In this document: positions 3,193-42,926 of the stretch, one piece after another
Layout of the letters: each line of letters begins with the position of its first letter
How positions within the stretch are numbered: position 1 is the stretch's first letter
Virus record (IMG/VR): IMGVR_UViG_3300032893_000001
Span: 120,954 to 184,953 of that record
Length of the DNA: 64,000 nt
Source of the DNA: a virus
Strand: one strand, 5' to 3'
The notes under the pieces: model-generated
What the model was told of the DNA's origin: nothing
Database searches by the model: none
The model's input: the letters and a program-made list of their open reading frames with translations, nothing else
Program-made: the position numbers and the translations under genes

Positions 3193-3722
3193 CCCGCCGC
3201 TCCTGTCATTCCCGTCAGCAGTGCCCCCAGCCCCTTCGTCGTCAGCTCGAACGTGTCGTCGGAGCACTTGACCAGGTACCCCACGTCCACCGCGGCGATC
3301 ACCACCTCGACGAACTCCTTCAGCAGGGGCATGTCCTTGGGCGGCTCCGCCAAGTTCAGCGTCGAGAGGAACAGCCCGCGCCACAACAGGTTGTCGAAGA
3401 GCACGCACCACATCCGCCGCGCCGTCTTCGTCGCCAGATGGAACGTCAGCGCCTCGGGGTTCGGGTAGTTCTTCCTCACCCGCTCTTCGCAGATGGCGCA
3501 GAGAGACATGTACCGATCTCCCTCCTGCACGATCGCGTGCACTTCCATCCCGCAGCGCAGAAACTCGTTGGACGTCGACTCTTCGAGGCCAGGGTACTCT
3601 CGAAGTTGAACCGCGTACGACTGGCACCCGAGCAGATCGGGCACGAGCCGATCGCCGATGCACCAGAACCCGTTCTTCTCTTTCACCAACAGTCGCCTGA
3701 AGTCTTTCGCCATGTTCGCCAT
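3189..3722 (-). CDS. hypothetical protein
   Basis: 177 aa, AAGGAGG RBS, downstream of promoter. Confidence 0.75.
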   Translation of the reverse strand: MANMAKDFRRLLVKEKNGFWCIGDRLVPDLLGCQSYAVQLREYPGLEESTSNEFLRCGMEVHAIVQEGDRYMSLCAICEERVRKNYPNPEALTFHLATKTARRMWCVLFDNLLWRGLFLSTLNLAEPPKDMPLLKEFVEVVIAAVDVGYLVKCSDDTFELTTKGLGALLTGMTGAAG

Positions 3723-10318: not shown

Positions 10319-10355
10319 GGCTAAGAAGAAGGGCGCCTCGAGGGCGCCCTGTCTT
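10319..10355 (-). terminator. hairpin terminator with TTAGCC tail
   Basis: AGGGCGCC-CTCGA-GGCGCCCT then TCTTCTTAGCC. Confidence 0.75.
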
Positions 10356-10684
10356 CAGTGATCGTGGTGGTGCCCCTCGTGCTTGTGCGTCTTCTCGCGC
10401 GACATGGCGCGCACCGCGTCTTTGAAGGCAGCGCGCGTGATGCGCCCCTGACGGTAGCGCCGCCAGAGATTCTTCTCCTTCTTGTTGTCGAAGAGCGGCA
10501 TCATGCGCATCTGCTGGAACATCGCCTTCGCCCAGCCCTCGGGAGCCCTTCGCCCCACGTTGGCCGCCTGGATCATTCGGCCCCGAGCACGCGACTTGGT
10601 GCCGTACCGCTCGATTCGGCGCTGCTGCGAGCGCAAGAAGCGCTCCGCGAGAATGGCGCGATAGTCGTCGACGAGCTTACCCAT
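10355..10684 (-). CDS. basic hypothetical protein
   Basis: MGKLVDDY..., AAGGAGGAG RBS, His-rich C-terminus. Confidence 0.7.
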   Translation of the reverse strand: MGKLVDDYRAILAERFLRSQQRRIERYGTKSRARGRMIQAANVGRRAPEGWAKAMFQQMRMMPLFDNKKEKNLWRRYRQGRITRAAFKDAVRAMSREKTHKHEGHHHDH

Positions 10685-20900: not shown

Positions 20901-21044
20901 CAGGAAGATGCCCAGCGCTGCCTCTTGAACGTCACTGAAGGTCTGATCGACTCGTCGGACTCCGAGAGAGTCGACGTTGCGTCGAACCGTTGTCTGCGCG
21001 ACCTTCTGTACCGACGCTTGGATCTCGTCGTCCGTGTACGGCAT
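17937..21044 (-). CDS. large virion structural protein (tail/baseplate-associated)
   Basis: 1035 aa, beta-rich G/A/T/S central part with TAAQIAADIN-type motifs seen in sheath/baseplate insert domains. Confidence 0.7.
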   Translation of the reverse strand: MPYTDDEIQASVQKVAQTTVRRNVDSLGVRRVDQTFSDVQEAALGIFLLYQLAPFYVISIGVQRLLEELTIHVQNVLALEQAILNTGRRVLPVTNITPLANANAALFELQSAVAARSSAFSSIEKTPAFQRFSSNLDTFLSQNGPSIKQGGTVVQTPKEAKATILSLLPTVLSAQTDIQAKAAYLQNALNDYAAVNLPAVAAQGIVSRTNQTVAAIVASLTPMTPTDRLETLRLNILDLLTSRAALREMGSFKTPAPIFLVDGSAPAFADAAHPAVPAIVKADIFAPYGIVGSSTLDVAVDGGAPVGINLRNSVLASFSGGGLENFLFTALTAASTTGTVAETFNIVGGVNDVLILVLTDTVSKVSTTVYAGLTAGPARTAAQIAADINTAITGLYLNSQYIAAAGGSGSHYVNISATNTNKGSAASITIPASPAATTLGFVAGTTVRGTDDNRHFIVTVNGTPHAMDFSAGSTSAASAAAQITAALGPNIVGSAQGQTGFQYVVVSYVGPSPFTAQMILPSAGSPAAGVLGMLMDATAYARASTARQVASNLNQAFSGIQASSEVVPIAGGSNVLMRSEPTDPARIIVYKSRGTGTVVPGLGTTLTLNVTGIDLVAQGVLPGDVLVFRDGVNLNTKWTITLVTSTSVTATGVAPAVGGAATYEIGPNLAVSPGYVVQVTTGIQNGTYVVQTIGPTALAVPFEFEIDTILPGSQSPLLQATFFTGNVGQERLTVASKSTLGNSAISLTGVAASLFFGAGSATAVGTSSWVSLPVAVPGLGAGDILEDYEVTYNVPTASYPLLSVDGTTISIAPASVPLTKVFALSTNSLPPFALLRSSAYAAFMTMSQQLATWASLSQNQTVWSKELQRLTNIVLNESAPAPDQVNAALTQLQQLQYILVQTDSPTPQATLEYALLGFSVPSITQVDALIQTFSEKGSDRAIDILLQGRFSDFFGLDMHSVSYAGAMLSQMRTVARNDMPVRKTDRKESTTSRVISSATSPDFEYDVSSIEQQPPNNVPTGFGLVPPTQNDPSKT

Positions 21045-25957: not shown

Positions 25958-26704
25958 TCAGAGGTACTGCTTGGTCTTCTCTATGATGCTCGACTTGAGC
26001 CGGCTCACCTGAGAGGCGTTCTTACCGATCTTCTTGGCGATGGCCGAAGTCGAAACCACCCGCTTACTCGTGTCGGGGTGGTACACGAGGTCGAAGACCT
26101 GCTTTTCTTCGGGCGTGAGCACGCTCGGAAGAAGGGACAGAACTTCTTGCTCTCTCGATCCGAAACGAGGCATCGGGTCACTCTCGAGTGCAGAGCTCGG
26201 GATGTCTTTGCGAATCGACTTCTGAATCTGTACTACTTTGCGCACGGGGATGCCTACGTACTCGGCGATTTCCTGTGCGGTCGGTGCTCGCCCAAGGTCG
26301 TCCGTCAACGCACCGTGCGCTCGCTGCAAGTTGCCGATCTGGTACGCCGGACTCTCGGGGATGTACGCGCGGTTCTGGTACTTGACCATGTACCGCTTCG
26401 CCTTCTGAATGCGGTGCTGCACGTGCGTGTTGAGCGCAGCGCCTCTCTGCGGGTTGTACGTCTGGAAGGCTTGGATGACGTGGCCGGTGATCTCCGCCTC
26501 CATCGCACTCGGCGTGATGAGCGGAGGAGTCCACTCGCGGACCTTGCTGTTGATCAGCGGCTGGTATGCGTCGAGCAAGGGCTCGAGATGCTCAGGCTTG
26601 CGCCCGCTCTCATTCCACTTGCTCCAGAGATCAAGATCTCGAGCTGCGCGAACTGCTGCCGTCTTCTTCTTCTCTTCGAGCAGCTCGTCAATCGGGTTGG
26701 ACAC
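25958..26704 (-). CDS. RNA polymerase sigma factor (sigma-70 family, group 3 FliA/SigF-like)
   Basis: region 2 (LLDAYQPLI...AFQTYNPQRGAALNTHV), region 3 (LGRAPTAQEIAEYVGI), region 4 HTH (LTPEEKQV...AIAKKIGKNASQVSRL). Confidence 0.88.
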   Translation of the reverse strand: MSNPIDELLEEKKKTAAVRAARDLDLWSKWNESGRKPEHLEPLLDAYQPLINSKVREWTPPLITPSAMEAEITGHVIQAFQTYNPQRGAALNTHVQHRIQKAKRYMVKYQNRAYIPESPAYQIGNLQRAHGALTDDLGRAPTAQEIAEYVGIPVRKVVQIQKSIRKDIPSSALESDPMPRFGSREQEVLSLLPSVLTPEEKQVFDLVYHPDTSKRVVSTSAIAKKIGKNASQVSRLKSSIIEKTKQYL

Positions 26705-35237: not shown

Positions 35238-35546
35238 TCAGACGGCGAGGTTGGTCTTGATGAGGAAGTCGCGCACCGAGCGGGGCGGAGGCACTCCACG
35301 ATACTCCTCCACGCGCTTGATGGAGAAGGCAGCCGCTTTGACAGCCAGAAGGAACGGGTCCTCGGGCACGATCTTGTCACGGTACGTGAACGTGTAGAGC
35401 TTGCCGTTCATCTTGATGGTGACCGGCGTCTCGTTTCGTCCAGGCCCGCACCCCGGAGGCTGCACGAAGATGCTCGTCGGCAGCTTGGTCTGCATGACCT
35501 GCGTCGAGATCAAGGCGAAGGGATCGAAGGAGGCCGGAATGGTCAT
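35238..35546 (-). CDS. hypothetical tail-region protein
   Basis: 102 aa coupled to tape measure. Confidence 0.65.
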   Translation of the reverse strand: MTIPASFDPFALISTQVMQTKLPTSIFVQPPGCGPGRNETPVTIKMNGKLYTFTYRDKIVPEDPFLLAVKAAAFSIKRVEEYRGVPPPRSVRDFLIKTNLAV

Positions 35547-38500
35547 GATTGCGGCGCTTTCTGCGTTCCTTGCTCGGTGTCTTTCGAATCGTTCCCGGTG
35601 TTGTTGGCGACCTGCTGCGTGAAACGAGCGGTGCTCTTGATGGCGGTACCGACCTCGGGATCGCCCATCGTACCGGCGATTCGCGCGAGGTGCTCCTCGA
35701 TCTTAGCAAGCAACGGATCTTGTTCTCGTTGCGACGCCTCCGTCTTCTCTTTGGCTGCTTTCTGTCGAGCTGCTTGCACCTCGCGTCCGGCAGCGCCGCG
35801 GCCCGCCGCAAGGTCCTGGATAGCCTCTGCGTTTCCGGAGGCGAGCATGCTCGAGATGTCCTTGCGCGCCTCTTCGGAGAGATCGCCGACGTTCACGCCG
35901 CTCTTGGCCAGCAACTGATTCGCTGCCAAGGACGGGTCCTTCTTGGCGAGCTCCTGGAACTTCCGCAGGTCTCCACCTCGGAACTGCACTCCTAGGGAGC
36001 TTCCGATCGCGTAGGCGCTTCCGCCCTTCTTGAGCTTCGCCTCGATCTTCGCGCGCTCTGCTGCATCCGAGCGGAGCTCCGAAGCTTGATCGAACTGCCC
36101 CTGCTTCTCGAGTTCGGATGCCAGCTTCCGCTTCTGAGCGACGGACAGGCCACGAATCTGAGACTCGTACGAGCCTTGCTCTGTCGCGAGTTCCTTGAGG
36201 AGCTCGGAATCCGTGGTTTCTCCAACCATGGATTGTCGGTCGATGCTCGAAAGCTTGCCCTGCATCGCCTTGATGATGCCCCCAGCGTCCTTGCCGAGTG
36301 CCGAAGTGATCGCTGCCTCGGTGCCCGCCGACAAGACCAATTTTCCAGACTTGTCCGTGGTCGCGTACCCGCTGAGCGTGAGCGAACGCGCTTGCTGCTG
36401 CGCTCCGCGACTCATCTCGCGAGCGAGAATACGCGTCTTCTCTTCTTGCTGGCCCTTGGCGACGGCTGAGAGCTGCGACGGAGAGCTCTTCACGGCGTCC
36501 ACGGACATACCGCGTCGGCGGGCGATCGCTGCCCACTCTTCTTCTGTCGGCTCTCGCTTCTCCTTCTGAGCCTTCTCGTACAGGTCGAAGGAGTCGGCAG
36601 CCGCTGCCATCTGCTTCAAAGCCTCTCGCTGCTCGGGCGGGAGATCTTCTTTCAGCAACATGTCTTCGATCTTGTCTCGAGACGCCTGGTCGCCTGAGTA
36701 GATGCCGGAGATCAGCGACTTGCCTTCTTGCGAGTTCAAGTACTCGCCCTTGGCTGCTGCCGCACGTCGATCGGTGACGGTCTTCCAGTAGCCCCCGGTG
36801 AGTCCCGTGAGAACCTTGTCGACAACCGACATCCCTTCGGTCTGCTTGTCGATCTTGCGAGCTCCGAGCATACCGAGAAGTCCCTCTGCAAATTCGGGAC
36901 GTCCCCTCTTGGCCGCGGGCATCGCCATCGCCTGCCCATAGGCCAAGTTCTTCTCGTCCATCGTGGCAAAACCACCGCTCAAAGAAGAGAGGGTACTCGG
37001 CGGACCCTTCTCTCCCATCATCTGTCGAGCGATCTTCTGCCGCTCCTCCGGCGTATTGGCCGACCGAATGTTCATCAGTGCGGCCGCGGCGTCCTTGTCA
37101 CCAGCGTTCGCGCGCTGCGCGAGCACCTGGGTCAATTGATCGAGCTTCGCGTTGCCGTGCACGTCCTTGAGAGAAGGATCTCGAAGAGCAGCTTGCGTTG
37201 CGTAGTACGCCCCCTGCGCCATGTTCGTACGTCTTTGGAGATCGTCCGCTCCGCCGACACCACGGAACAACCCGCCGTATCCAGCAGCCTGCATTCGATC
37301 CATGTCCGAGTCGCCGAACGCGAGCTTCGACGCTCCTGAGCTAAACAACCCAGTGAGACCGATTTCGGCTGCACGGCCTACGCCCTCCCTGCGTCCGAAG
37401 AAGTTGTTGACGCCGGCTTGCGCAGACGTCCGTCCAGCGAGAGGAGAAGTACCCGTTCCGTACTTGCTTGCGATCCCCACTCCGGCGCGCGCGCCGCCAC
37501 CGAGCTGCTTCTGAAGACCAGAGCTCCCGGCGCCACGAATCGCATCCGAGTAGGCGTCCATGATCTGCTGGTCGTACTCTTCGACCGCGACGCCCGTCAG
37601 CTTGTTGATGTACGTCTCCACCATCGAGGAGAGGTCGGTGTAGAACTGAGCTCCGGCGCGTTGCAGACTGTTCTGCACCTTGTCTCTGGCTTCTTCGAAT
37701 CGTCGTTTGACGCCTTCGATGCCCTGCGTTCGGCTGAGGGTGGCCTGCCTGCGCTGGAACTCGTCTGCGCGCGCCGATGACCGCTGCTGCTCCCGCAGCC
37801 GGGGCATATCCTTCGCCATCTTCACGGCGTCCTCGAGCTCGTCCATCCCCATTCCGAGCTGCCGGGAGGCGAACATCATCGAGCGATCGTCCATTTGATC
37901 GATGTCGATGCCCTTGCTCGAAGCCCACTGCATCAGCGCCATCGTCGGGAGCATTCCCCCGAACTGCTGAAGAGCTGCACCGCGAAGGCGGCCTTCGTTG
38001 CGGAGGAACCCGGCCTTTCCGATGGAGGACAAGTTCCCACGAGCGCGGCCGCGCGTGGCCCCGATGTTCATGTCACCGGACATCCACTGTTCGACGGATG
38101 CTTGATCGAGCTGCCCATTCTGTCCCGCGACGGACGCCAAGAACATCCGTCCGCGTCCCGAACGCAGAAAACCACCAGCCTGCTCGAGCTGCCGTGTCGC
38201 GAGTGCCTGTCGGCCCTCTGCGCCGGTGAGCCCCGTGGCGTTGTAGATGTCTTCTTCCGACAGCACTCCCGCCTGCATGGCGGTTCCGATCATCCCGGCT
38301 GTGCGGATTCCTGCGAACGCGCCCTGCGCTCCACGGCCGCCGATCGCACGGGAGACCTGAGCTCCGATGTTCGCCGCCGCGGTGAGCTCGCTCGTGGCCA
38401 TGTTGCCGGCCTGAGAGAACTGGCGGATCTCGGTGGCCAATCGACGCTGGTCTCCAGAGTTGAAGATGCCCGATCCCCGCATCGCGACGACGAACTCCTG

Positions 38501-39163
38501 CGCCGCCTGCATGCTGGTTCCCATCTCCTTCGCTACGACCTTCAGTGTATCGACCATCTCGCGGAAGCGCTGAGTGAACTGGCTGACGTCGCGTACGCCG
38601 CCGCCCATTCCCATCCGCCCCATGTTCGACGCGAGCCCTTGGAGCTCTCGAATCCCGAGCATCTCCCCACCAGGCCCCTGCTGCCCCGCCATGTTGAAGA
38701 GCTGCTGGTTGATCCCCCCAAGCTGCCCCGTCGAGAAGCCCTGCCCGTACGGCGTCATGAAGTTGAAGGCGCCGCGCATCTGCTGGTTGAACGCCTGCTG
38801 CTGCTGCGCGCCCGTCCACATCTGGTTCGCCGCGTAGCTGGCGACTGCCATCGGAACCGCCACCCCTGCGGCAACACCAAGACCCGCAACGCCGGCTCCC
38901 ATCAGCCCTGCGCCCCCCATGTAGGCACCCATCCCCGCCTTGAGGCCGAGGCTCATCGGATCGAGCCCGAGCATTCCGATGCCGAGGCTCGCCAAAGGAG
39001 CTCCGACGCTCGCGGCTGCGTTCATCAGCCCGCCCGTAACGCGCTCTGCCTGAACGGGCGGCCCACCCATCCCACCGACCATGCCCGAGAACTGCATGTT
39101 CGAGGCGTACATCGACTGAAACTGCCCAGAAGCGGCAGCAATCTCAGCGGAGTTCAGCGGCAT
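35543..39163 (-). CDS. tape measure protein
   Basis: 1206 aa, helical A/G/Q/M-rich, upstream of baseplate genes. Confidence 0.7.
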   Translation of the reverse strand: MPLNSAEIAAASGQFQSMYASNMQFSGMVGGMGGPPVQAERVTGGLMNAAASVGAPLASLGIGMLGLDPMSLGLKAGMGAYMGGAGLMGAGVAGLGVAAGVAVPMAVASYAANQMWTGAQQQQAFNQQMRGAFNFMTPYGQGFSTGQLGGINQQLFNMAGQQGPGGEMLGIRELQGLASNMGRMGMGGGVRDVSQFTQRFREMVDTLKVVAKEMGTSMQAAQEFVVAMRGSGIFNSGDQRRLATEIRQFSQAGNMATSELTAAANIGAQVSRAIGGRGAQGAFAGIRTAGMIGTAMQAGVLSEEDIYNATGLTGAEGRQALATRQLEQAGGFLRSGRGRMFLASVAGQNGQLDQASVEQWMSGDMNIGATRGRARGNLSSIGKAGFLRNEGRLRGAALQQFGGMLPTMALMQWASSKGIDIDQMDDRSMMFASRQLGMGMDELEDAVKMAKDMPRLREQQRSSARADEFQRRQATLSRTQGIEGVKRRFEEARDKVQNSLQRAGAQFYTDLSSMVETYINKLTGVAVEEYDQQIMDAYSDAIRGAGSSGLQKQLGGGARAGVGIASKYGTGTSPLAGRTSAQAGVNNFFGRREGVGRAAEIGLTGLFSSGASKLAFGDSDMDRMQAAGYGGLFRGVGGADDLQRRTNMAQGAYYATQAALRDPSLKDVHGNAKLDQLTQVLAQRANAGDKDAAAALMNIRSANTPEERQKIARQMMGEKGPPSTLSSLSGGFATMDEKNLAYGQAMAMPAAKRGRPEFAEGLLGMLGARKIDKQTEGMSVVDKVLTGLTGGYWKTVTDRRAAAAKGEYLNSQEGKSLISGIYSGDQASRDKIEDMLLKEDLPPEQREALKQMAAAADSFDLYEKAQKEKREPTEEEWAAIARRRGMSVDAVKSSPSQLSAVAKGQQEEKTRILAREMSRGAQQQARSLTLSGYATTDKSGKLVLSAGTEAAITSALGKDAGGIIKAMQGKLSSIDRQSMVGETTDSELLKELATEQGSYESQIRGLSVAQKRKLASELEKQGQFDQASELRSDAAERAKIEAKLKKGGSAYAIGSSLGVQFRGGDLRKFQELAKKDPSLAANQLLAKSGVNVGDLSEEARKDISSMLASGNAEAIQDLAAGRGAAGREVQAARQKAAKEKTEASQREQDPLLAKIEEHLARIAGTMGDPEVGTAIKSTARFTQQVANNTGNDSKDTEQGTQKAPQS

Positions 39164-39184: not shown

Positions 39185-39232
39185 ACAAAAAAGGGCGCGA
39201 AGGCGGCATAAGAAGAACAAGGAGGCACTACC
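39185..39232 (+). promoter_or_regulatory. promoter (ACAA-N19-ATAAGA) and RBS
   Basis: ATAAGA 39208-39213, AAGGAGG; divergent from tape measure. Confidence 0.7.
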
Positions 39233-39418
39233 ATGGACAAGAACTGCATCAAGAAATACCTGTATCCCGAGGACACCAACGCCGGCCCGCTCAGCGGCTT
39301 CGAAGACTGGCGCTTGTTCTGCCTGCTGGTACAGGAACAAGAAGAAGCGAAGCGCCGCAGGGAGACCCAGACGCGGCTGCTCGCAATGGTGGGCGACGGA
39401 CGGGGGTTCCTGCGCTGA
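39233..39418 (+). CDS. small hypothetical protein
   Basis: 61 aa in promoter-gene-terminator cassette. Confidence 0.7.
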   Translation: MDKNCIKKYLYPEDTNAGPLSGFEDWRLFCLLVQEQEEAKRRRETQTRLLAMVGDGRGFLR

Positions 39419-39424
39419 TCGAGT

Positions 39425-39552
39425 AGAAGAAGGGCACCCCCTTCTTCTTAGCCCAGAGGGCGCAATTTCCAGGGTGAATCGGGCATAAGAACTCTGAGAG
39501 TTCAGCTCTCTTTAGCCCGCGCGCACATTCCGGAGCCGTTGGCGGCATAAGA
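39425..39552 (+). promoter_or_regulatory. terminator-promoter-terminator-promoter tandem (empty cassette)
   Basis: hairpin+TTAGCCC 39425-39454; GCAA 39462/ATAAGA 39485; GAGAG-TTCAG-CTCTC+TTTAGCCC 39496-39518; ATAAGA 39547. Confidence 0.75.
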
Positions 39553-41751: not shown

Positions 41752-42006
41752 ATGAGCATCGACACGAACAAGACCATCGACACGAACAAGACCATCGACA
41801 CGAACAAGTCGGAGCAGGCGAAGGCATTCGAGCCGTCGACATTCAGCGAATCGCTCAGCACCCACGTCGGCGAGTTCTCCACCGCGTTCTCGTACGCAGC
41901 AGGCGCCGTCGCCGGTGGTCTCGTGATCGTCGGCATCGCGACGCTCGTGCAGAAGGGTGTCAACGCCGCCTTCGGTGGCGCGGCCGACCCGATCGACACG
42001 GAGTAG
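41752..42006 (+). CDS. small membrane protein with N-terminal IDTNKT repeats
   Basis: AAGGAGG RBS, C-terminal TM helix. Confidence 0.7.
   Translation: MSIDTNKTIDTNKTIDTNKSEQAKAFEPSTFSESLSTHVGEFSTAFSYAAGAVAGGLVIVGIATLVQKGVNAAFGGAADPIDTE
41757..41808 (+). repeat. 18-bp tandem repeat (about 2.9 copies)
   Basis: CATCGACACGAACAAGAC x2 plus 16 nt. Confidence 0.9.
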
Positions 42007-42014
42007 CAGTACCG

Positions 42015-42083
42015 GAAGAAGGAACCCCACGGGGTTCCTTCTTTTTAGCTCCGTGCAAAATACAGGTATTCTCCGAGATAAGA
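42015..42083 (+). promoter_or_regulatory. terminator (GAAGGAACCCC/GGGGTTCCTTC + TTTTTAGCTCC) abutting promoter
   Basis: GCAA 42055-42058, ATAAGA 42078-42083. Confidence 0.8.
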
Positions 42084-42230
42084 ATCGTGGAGGAAGAGAC
42101 TGCTCTTACGTGTGGTGGACCAACCGAGGGCTTGCCCTCTGCATGGACTGCCTCCTTACCACGTAGGAGTAGGGACGCCTCTGAAAAGAACCCTGGCCGG
42201 AAGTCCAAGCCGGGGTTCTTTTCTCTACCC
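42084..42230 (+). ncRNA. candidate structured small RNA carrying an anti-Shine-Dalgarno sequence
   Basis: own promoter and terminator; 13-bp stem 42100-42112/42160-42172; TGCCTCCTTAC 42149-42159. Confidence 0.55.
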
Positions 42231-42237
42231 CTGCTAC

Positions 42238-42266
42238 GCAAGAACGCTACGTAGTAGGGGATAAGA
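42238..42266 (+). promoter_or_regulatory. promoter GCAA-N19-ATAAGA
   Basis: GCAA 42238-42241, ATAAGA 42261-42266. Confidence 0.8.
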
Positions 42267-42287
42267 ACAGTAAGGAGGCATCAAACC

Positions 42288-42479
42288 ATGGGACAATGCG
42301 AACACTGCGGCGGGGACCTAGCTGACGACCAACTCCACGTGCTGAGCGAGTGCTTCACGCACTTGTACGATCGCATCGACAAACTCGAAGAGGAAAACCG
42401 CGGGTTGAAGCAAGCCGTGGAGGCGTACAAGCGCCAACTCAAGAAGATCACCGCGACGGCCCCTCCTTCCGTCGTGTAG
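42288..42479 (+). CDS. small Cys/His + coiled-coil protein
   Basis: CEHCG...H...C then leucine-zipper-like segment. Confidence 0.7.
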   Translation: MGQCEHCGGDLADDQLHVLSECFTHLYDRIDKLEEENRGLKQAVEAYKRQLKKITATAPPSVV

Positions 42480-42549
42480 CGTTGCCCGTCTTTGACGGGT
42501 GACGGCGAGAGACAGCCGGGCTTCCCCCCACTCGGCTGTCTCTCGTTTT

Positions 42550-42843
42550 TTAGCCCCGTGGCACGCGCATATGCTGAACGCCGTTCGGTGTCTCCTGTGC
42601 GGGTGCAGAAGCCGCCTCCTTCTTCTTGCGAATGGGGGAGCGCTTCTCCATCGGCTTCGTCAAGTTGGTCACCGCGGTCGTTACGATCTCCTCGCAGTTC
42701 GCGCAGAGGTCGTCGTAGGACGCGACGGAGTGCCCCCGTACAGTGATCGTGAGCGCGGGGTAGTCGCTCTCAGGAGCCTCCTCGACGTACTCCGTGCGAT
42801 TGCAGCGGCCACACTCGATTGCAACAACGGACTTTCGTGCCAT
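42550..42843 (-). CDS. zinc-binding hypothetical protein
   Basis: MARKSVVAIECGRC...DLCANC. Confidence 0.65.
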   Translation of the reverse strand: MARKSVVAIECGRCNRTEYVEEAPESDYPALTITVRGHSVASYDDLCANCEEIVTTAVTNLTKPMEKRSPIRKKKEAASAPAQETPNGVQHMRVPRG

Positions 42844-42926
42844 CTTCTTCTCCCGGTAGCTTTCCTTCTTGTACCCCTTCAATCGGACCCTGAAAAGAGG
42901 AATAAGAAGAACAAGGAGGCACTACC

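Follow-up and report, generated by a model that had tools for sequence, protein, structure and literature searches.

The window analysed here, a stretch of 64,000 nucleotides, makes up the final 64 kb of a 184,953-bp IMG/VR virus record (G000) from an uncultured soil/wetland phage, which has a G+C content of ~61% and encodes a fused beta-beta' RNA polymerase. The window carries a plus-strand island of small cassettes, with the tape-measure gene (35543-39163, minus strand) on one side and a convergent gene (42550-42882, minus strand) on the other. In this island, an 84-aa gene (41752-42006, plus strand) is closed by a terminator, T1 (42016-42047, plus strand), with 13-nt arms that are 100% complementary and are followed by TTTAGCTC. 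Downstream of T1 come, from 5' to 3', a promoter (P1), ~95 nt, a second terminator (T2), another promoter (P2), the sequence GTAAGGAGGCA and the ATG at 42288 of a 63-aa gene (42288-42479, plus strand). The unit that runs from P1 to T2 is called RNA1 hereafter. The 63-aa gene has a GC3 of 0.78, and its product is a hydrophilic protein with a Cys-x2-Cys motif and a coiled coil, for which Pfam gave coiled-coil matches only, all below threshold. The terminator region that follows this gene (42478-42556) showed sub-threshold Rfam matches to 6C (33.1 bits vs 47) and ctRNA_pGA1 (27.6 vs 45), which are probably hairpin noise. An empty cassette was also observed in the island, at 39462-39518, and is made of a promoter, 5 nt, a GAGAG/CUCUC mini-hairpin, TTTAGCCC and the next promoter.

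P1 (42055-42084, plus strand) reads GCAA-N18-GAGATAAGAA, an exact match to the class motif GCAA-N18-GATAAGAA, and P2 (42238-42267, plus strand), which belongs to the next cassette, is again an exact motif, GCAA-N18-GGGATAAGAA. The first-pass annotation had called P1 a perfect promoter; this holds, but the promoter is perfect for the phage's own class and lacks the sigma-70 consensus, and a generic promoter scan did not call it. In the window, GATAAGAA occurs 9 times against 0.5 expected. Over the whole 185-kb genome the two-part motif has 11 near-exact sites, all of them in the window and all co-oriented with the local genes. The first 121 kb hold no near-exact GCAA-N18-GATAAGA copy; since all 11 lie in the last 64 kb, the promoter class marks one arm of the genome. 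In 20 related phages, 55 copies of the motif were counted, compared to 0 for the reversed control. A sigma-70-family protein with Sigma70_r3 and r4 domains is encoded in the window (25958-26704) and has a copy of GCAA-N18-GATAAGAA upstream, and we infer that the promoter class is probably read by a holoenzyme containing such a phage-encoded factor.

The distances downstream of the -10 8-mer give an indication of where transcription may start. In relatives, leaderless cassettes of this promoter class have their ATG 5-6 nt past the 8-mer, and a purine-rich G(A/G)AGG is found 4-7 nt past it in all cassettes, at 4 nt in RNA1. Because of these leaderless ATGs and of the fixed position of G(A/G)AGG, the start of RNA1 is placed at ~42089. 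By the same reasoning the messages of the coding cassettes would begin almost directly with the Shine-Dalgarno (SD) sequence, and the P2 transcript probably starts at ~42272. The loci L081-L083 (in G013, G014 and G015) present tandem promoters 191 nt apart around a leaderless gene of ~62 aa, whose ATG lies 5 nt past the 8-mer and whose product contains the conserved motif RYExLVASLF; the gene that follows is leaderless as well, and these genes are the best clue to the transcript starts of the class. A further element, (C/T)TTAGCCC, was observed right after terminator hairpins at 1797, 6400, 8621 and 21062 on the minus strand and at 39447, 39511, 42549 and 43280 on the plus strand, up to ~10 nt 5' of the next GCAA box where one is present (coordinates confirmed for 1797, 6400, 8621 and 39447). 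With a loose pattern allowing one mismatch it shows no overall enrichment (20 vs 19 expected), therefore only its position is notable, and it could be a part of the terminator or an upstream promoter element.

The predicted RNA1 transcript covers ~138 nt (42089-42226, plus strand) and starts with 5'-GGAGGAAG; we infer its two ends from the promoter class and from the intrinsic terminator T2 (42183-42226, plus strand). The arms of T2 (42183-42197 and 42209-42223) are 15 nt long and 93% complementary, and they form a 15-bp stem followed by UUCUUUUCUCU (hairpin 42183-42223, then TTCTTTTCTCT). In both the MFE and the centroid folds the 5' end of the RNA, GGAGG (42089-42093), pairs with CCUCU (42178-42182) in a closing helix. 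A 13-bp stem, found by the repeat finder and by folding, joins 42100-42112 to 42160-42172 with two G-U pairs, and the predicted fold places an apical hairpin, GAGGG-CUUG-CCCUC (42126-42139), inside it. The folding is strand-specific, with a z score of −2.86 on the plus strand compared to −0.75 on the minus strand against shuffled controls. Promoter, terminator, 13-bp stem with its two G-U pairs, inner hairpin and an 11-nt match to the RBS of the next gene had all been listed in the first-pass annotation, and all were recovered in place by direct reading of the sequence, the repeat finder and folding.

A search of a protein collection with the 63-aa neighbour returned one cluster at 70% identity (P0002), which led to contig L196, from a 138-kb ENA assembly. 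This contig has the same island and keeps T1 and the 63-aa neighbour, and its RNA unit (3362-3495) occupies the corresponding position, downstream of the terminator that closes the homologue of the upstream gene. Between G000 and L196 the promoter of RNA1 is identical at 4/4 positions of the -35 box and 8/8 of the -10 8-mer, and at only 6/18 (33%) of its spacer; of the four bases that separate the 8-mer from the start of the RNA, one is identical. The RNA1 body is identical at 72/94 positions (77%) and the T2 terminator at 37/44 (84%), while the adjacent protein gene is 78% identical and the P2 spacer 8/18 (44%). RNA1 is therefore conserved like a gene, with the spacers, at 33-44%, near saturation.

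The changes between the two sequences respect the fold. Both arms of the closing helix and the stem of the apical hairpin are invariant in L196, where CU replaces UU in the hairpin loop. The 13-bp stem of L196 has a G-C pair where G000 has U-A, an A-U where G000 has G-U, and one base fewer in each arm, and T2 shows an A-U to G-C double change. Overall, pairing is kept in G000 as well as in L196 for 95.7% of the structure cells, and two of the changes are compensatory double changes. The covariation check on the homologous loci that the first-pass annotation had suggested was carried out on these two distinct sequences and was not significant, 122/500 shuffles doing as well; since there are only two distinct sequences, the compensation is a matter of consistency and not of proof. 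Further contigs with the L196-type RNA are identical to L196. In a contig of a variant strain of G000 from a soil run (X4) none of the listed changes falls in 42054-42163, but 2 of its 7 differences are unlisted, possibly near the contig ends, and the contig was therefore given no weight. The phage is present at wetland or soil sites (runs X1-X4), and no RNA run was listed among the sequencing runs that contain it.

The region does not behave as a coding sequence. All frames between 42087 and 42264 have a GC3 of 0.49-0.63, compared to 0.73-0.89 in ten neighbouring genes, and the alignment of RNA1 with L196 contains four 1-nt indels (columns 18, 34, 60 and 77), so that every reading frame is broken between the homologues. 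The products of the 55/57-codon frame in the two phages have only 15 residues in common, and no translated similarity to the RNA1 region was found in 14 genomes. The unit is thus delimited, non-coding, structured and under purifying selection, and the description of it as a promoter-driven small RNA is borne out by L196, which keeps the unit, the promoter boxes, the terminator and the compensated stems, with indels that break every frame. RNA1 is in all likelihood a real gene.

The distribution of RNA1 is narrow. By blastn it had no match in 50,697 phage records; protein searches of IMG/VR for related loci with the 63-aa, 84-aa and tape-measure proteins returned none, nor did an exact 23-mer search in IMG/VR, and a degenerate RNA1 pattern gave two AT-rich chance matches only in JGI metagenomes. 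Related phages were collected through the fused RNA polymerase (69 loci, 35-66% identity). When the locus was compared by blastn with 20 of these polymerase relatives, only the promoter-RBS part was matched, and the covariance model built on the two homologues (R2) found no RNA1 in 40 of them; on the G000 genome, R2 recovered the RNA1 site only, with no paralogue. The layout ATAAGA-N4-34-TGCCTCC had 4 matches in the 40 relatives compared to 1 in the control, and is therefore not a general one. In a permissive Rfam scan no family (6C, RsaE, C4 and all others) reached threshold on RNA1; the matches that touch it concern the terminator only (NsiR1, 20.6 bits vs 39) or lie on the minus strand at the terminator (sodF sRNA, 31.4 vs 46; Leu_leader, 15.7 vs 50). 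RNA1 is a new phage RNA family with two known members.

We then considered the pyrimidine-rich box of RNA1, UGCCUCCUUAC (42149-42159, plus strand; TGCCTCCTTAC in DNA), which is the exact complement of 42270-42280 (plus strand), the RBS GTAAGGAGGCA of gene 42288 and its proposed target. The window contains ten copies of the shorter sequence AAGGAGGCA, where 0.48 would be expected; nine of them are RBSs, located at the genes at which the first-pass annotation had placed them, and the tenth is the antisense copy in RNA1. These RBSs are concentrated in the island of both phages, with 5 in G000 and 4 in L196, and GGAGGCA makes up only 11/75 of the GGAGG-type RBSs genome-wide. A census of orphan GGAGGCA sites was noisy, the gene calling being crude. 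Counted over the two strands of the whole genome, AAGGAGG has 33 non-RBS copies, so that its complement is expected in ~1% of 94-nt stretches. When the RNA1 core was shuffled, 0.5% of the shuffles matched as many RBSs by at least 7 nt, and in 3% one of 122 RBSs was matched over 11 nt.

The core of the box, UGCCUCCU, is identical at 8/8 positions in G000 and L196. The whole box, which reads UGCCUCCUCAC in L196, is identical at 10/11, which is no better than the 77% of the RNA body (P ~0.24, binomial estimate); GUGGACC, the GAGGG/CCCUC hairpin, GUAGGGA and GCCUCUG are conserved as strongly. The one change affects the ninth base, U in G000 and C in L196, so that 8 nt instead of 9 match AAGGAGGCA, with the RBSs unchanged alongside it. 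The 11-nt match to the RBS of the neighbour is found in G000 only and is not kept in L196. In the G000 fold UGCC is paired with GGUG (unpaired probability 0.06-0.09) and UCCUUAC lies in a 1x7 internal loop (0.66-0.98), while the L196 fold leaves AUGCC unpaired and pairs UCC. Of the anti-SD stretch, which the first-pass annotation expected to be conserved and accessible, UGCCUCCU is conserved in the two distinct sequences; 7 of the 11 nt are unpaired in G000, and a different half is unpaired in L196. That UGCCUCCU is kept while its intramolecular partner differs argues against a purely intramolecular conservation, and is what a functional box would show.

The energetics of a pairing with mRNA were then calculated. 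Opening the box costs 5-5.7 kcal/mol (5.6 for the 11-mer in G000), compared to duplex energies of −13.6 kcal/mol for the 8-mer, −14.5 for the 9-mer and −18.5 for the 11-mer. When RNA1 was folded as a dimer with the predicted first 70 nt of each promoter-led message, the net gain was small, only −1.6 to −6.8 kcal/mol. For the 42288 message the gain is −3.5 kcal/mol, compared to −0.9 ± 1.1 kcal/mol for shuffled targets, of which the best reached −5.1. A genome-wide duplex scan with the 27-nt region gave 1040 sites and no discrimination.

These data can be brought together in a tentative mechanism. The phage-class promoter GCAA-N18-GATAAGAA would start the RNA at ~42089, and the transcript would end at the intrinsic terminator near 42226. 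RNA1 is predicted to fold as a closed rod, composed of the GGAGG/CCUCU closing helix, the 13-bp stem and a small apical domain and followed by the terminator hairpin, with the box UGCCUCCU(UAC), half unpaired, where the stem meets the apical domain. The exposed half of the box would nucleate pairing with the SD sequence (A)AGGAGGCA, which is predicted to form the very 5' end of messages of the same promoter class, namely those of the genes at 39233, 41273, 41752, 42288 and 42927 in the island and at 3722, 21736, 22181 and 57692 elsewhere. Such a pairing would act in trans, and would lower the translation of the target messages or alter their stability. We regard this anti-SD mechanism as the best single hypothesis for RNA1, one that is predicted from complementarity and conservation and that we advance tentatively. 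The full statement, that the accessory island has in RNA1 a true gene for a non-coding RNA, predicted to pair through its box with SD-led messages, is likewise put forward as possible, its probability falling somewhat short of even.

RNA1 may also be functional and structured without the box being an mRNA seed. It would then bind or titrate a protein, such as a regulator of translation, a factor associated with the ribosome or a nuclease specific for the 3' tail of the 16S rRNA, or act on the transcription machinery, and the likeness to an anti-SD sequence would be incidental or would serve protein recognition. Taken alone this is rather unlikely, and nearly as likely as the anti-SD mechanism. 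It fits with the several other blocks that are as conserved as the box, with a box that is half buried in both homologues and has weak net pairing energies, and with the lack of joint change between the box and the RBSs. Against it, no protein-binding motif could be tied to RNA1: the GGA triplets lie mostly in stems and the GGA of the terminator loop is lost in L196. On the basis of the sequence and the fold, these same features led us to reject RNA1 as a CsrA/RsmA sponge. In addition, unrelated ORF-less cassettes of the clade also carry CU-rich boxes, an indication that the sequence itself matters.

A role of RNA1 in cis, or as a partner specific to the 63-aa gene, is improbable. The first-pass annotation had proposed a cis-acting or type I antitoxin element for the gene at 42288; under such a reading, read-through from P1 would fold the anti-SD onto the SD, or RNA1 would be a type I-like antitoxin. 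The perfect 11-nt complementarity to the adjacent RBS, 110 nt downstream on the same strand, and the fact that the RNA and the 63-aa gene remain neighbours in L196 are in favour of such a pair. But a strong terminator and the separate promoter P2 stand between them, and the P2 transcript start at ~42272, if correctly placed, removes the GU of the 11-mer. The match extends over 11 nt only, and its restriction to G000 speaks against a role in cis or as an antitoxin. Downstream of the RNA, L196 has an insertion that comprises a promoter, a leader of ~210 nt and an 82-aa gene with AAGGAGGAA, and the 63-aa gene follows, coupled through an overlapping TGATG without AAGGAGGCA. The 63-aa protein, hydrophilic, with the Cys-x2-Cys motif and a coiled-coil character, is not a membrane toxin and is therefore unlike a type I toxin. 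The antitoxin reading is unlikely and largely excluded.

It is equally improbable that RNA1 is a decayed or emptied cassette, which lost its ORF and is transcribed without function, the anti-SD having arisen by chance or as an inverted remnant of a promoter-RBS module. The island does contain a truly empty cassette (39462-39518) and a promoter-RBS module (39208-39239), and the GGAGG of RNA1 is located exactly at the SD position of the coding cassettes. A functionless remnant is at odds with an RNA body that is far more conserved than the neutral spacers, with compensated changes that maintain the stems and with strand-specific folding.

The weakest alternative, a protein-coding region, is highly improbable and largely excluded on both strands: on the plus strand the 55-codon GTG frame (42087-42254) starts with GTG or ATG 2 nt past the 8-mer in the two homologues and is open in each, but the candidate frames have a GC3 of 0.50-0.59, are shifted by the four indels, with products that share so few residues, and continue past the terminator into P2; on the minus strand, the SD GTAAGGAGGCA with a 12-codon ORF from 42144 (AAGGAGGCA-GTCC-ATG, a normal SD-to-start spacing) loses its ATG in L196, has no promoter motif in that direction, is closed to entry by the terminator and folds no better than shuffled sequence.

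Other ORF-less cassettes of the clade were compared with RNA1, and none has detectable homology to it. A first family, type A, is a 150-nt promoter-led RNA that adjoins the tape-measure gene in six phages (G012-G017; L182-L187, ~1501-1656 in each) and has no counterpart in the window. Its model, R1, contains 18 pairs with compensatory changes, 0/500 shuffles being as good, and its apical part carries a conserved CCUCCUUCUUGG box, C(C)UCCUUCUUGG; we know of no described family like it. On the window R1 did not match RNA1, its best match (E = 0.1) lying elsewhere, and R2 had no match in the type-A phages. The two RNAs are alike in their promoter class, in their location in an island by the tape-measure gene, in a long-range closing helix that begins with 5'-G(A/G)AGG, in an internal CU-rich box and in a 3' hairpin. 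This resemblance is either an analogy or a homology too old to detect.

A common ORF-less promoter-to-terminator cassette is also found in the same island of G006 (37846-38010) and G008 (~10320-10460), the records behind L037 and L009. It presents GCCUCCCCUUC / CCUCCUCCUUCUUG, a CCUUCUUG loop and CCUCC / CCUUCUUG boxes, and lies upstream of a conserved gene of ~90 aa that seemingly has a TTGACA-type promoter. In the window itself there is a second ORF-less unit (21191-21061, minus strand) that is preceded by an exact promoter. The GGAGGA at its 5' end pairs with UCCUUC, and a GC hairpin and TTAGCCCC follow, 17 nt before the ATG of a 1035-aa gene at 21044. This unit may be a leader or an attenuator rather than a free RNA. 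Between RNA1 (42143-42157) and the 5'-terminal 15 nt of this RNA, running from 21157 downward, a duplex of 13 bp with one bulge was calculated at −4.2 kcal/mol, within the range of shuffled controls. In G001 a non-coding stretch of the island carries TTGCCTCC but shows no alignment with RNA1 (z = 0.8).

That promoter-led RNAs with SD-complementary boxes recur in the clade raises the prior that the box matters, without indicating what it does. One may imagine that these phages combine SD-first messages (5'-(A)AGGAGG...), made from promoters specific to a phage sigma factor, with several unrelated small RNAs, RNA1, the type-A family and the G006/G008 cassette, that would display copies of the 16S rRNA 3' tail and would together time or cap the translation of the island, or act as decoys for factors that recognise the anti-SD tail. 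As a general scheme we consider this distinctly unlikely.

Few regulatory RNAs have been described for large uncultured phages, and the clade of RNA1 has its own fused RNA polymerase and sigma factor. If the box pairs with the 5'-terminal SD of the island messages, RNA1 would be a simple self-contained switch on the accessory genes. If the box is not a seed, RNA1 is still a new conserved phage RNA.

Among phage RNAs, the nearest in layout is the c4 antisense RNA of phages P1 and P7 (immI operon), which is processed from the transcript of its own target and pairs through two short boxes. Like c4, RNA1 is a phage RNA located 5' of, and on the same strand as, genes whose RBS region shows a short complementarity to it. 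Unlike c4, it is provided with a promoter and a terminator of its own; the match to the RBS of the neighbour is lost in L196, and RNA1 has no Rfam match. Base-pairing sRNAs are also encoded by prophages, as is the case of DicF. The anti-sRNAs of EHEC phages (PMC4104026) and SprY (PMC8501977) are of this type, and further prophage sRNAs are reported in PMC10732415. RNA1 is comparable to DicF, the EHEC anti-sRNAs and SprY as a small RNA of a phage accessory region, with a regulatory role that is predicted. Those RNAs have defined host mRNA or sRNA targets, whereas the best matches of RNA1 are the messages of the phage's own island, and there is no homology between them. In searches of the openly accessible literature, no lytic-type large phage was described as encoding a mimic of the 16S tail.

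The closest kind by predicted function is that of the trans-acting sRNAs with a C/U-rich seed that occlude SD sequences, such as staphylococcal RsaE and Bacillus RoxS. Mycobacterial 6C is also a trans-acting sRNA whose C/U-rich seed occludes SD sequences (PMC6486639). As in these sRNAs, RNA1 is a non-coding unit of ~100-150 nt that runs from its own promoter to its own terminator, and it has a pyrimidine-rich box complementary to G-rich RBSs, with many potential targets that share one motif. It differs from them in that it has no sequence or structure homology to them, is encoded by a phage under a phage-specific class of promoter, and holds its box half paired in an internal loop and not in an apical hairpin loop. 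As far as sequence comparison can indicate, RNA1 would belong, by its predicted function, to this C/U-rich-seed, SD-occluding kind of sRNA.
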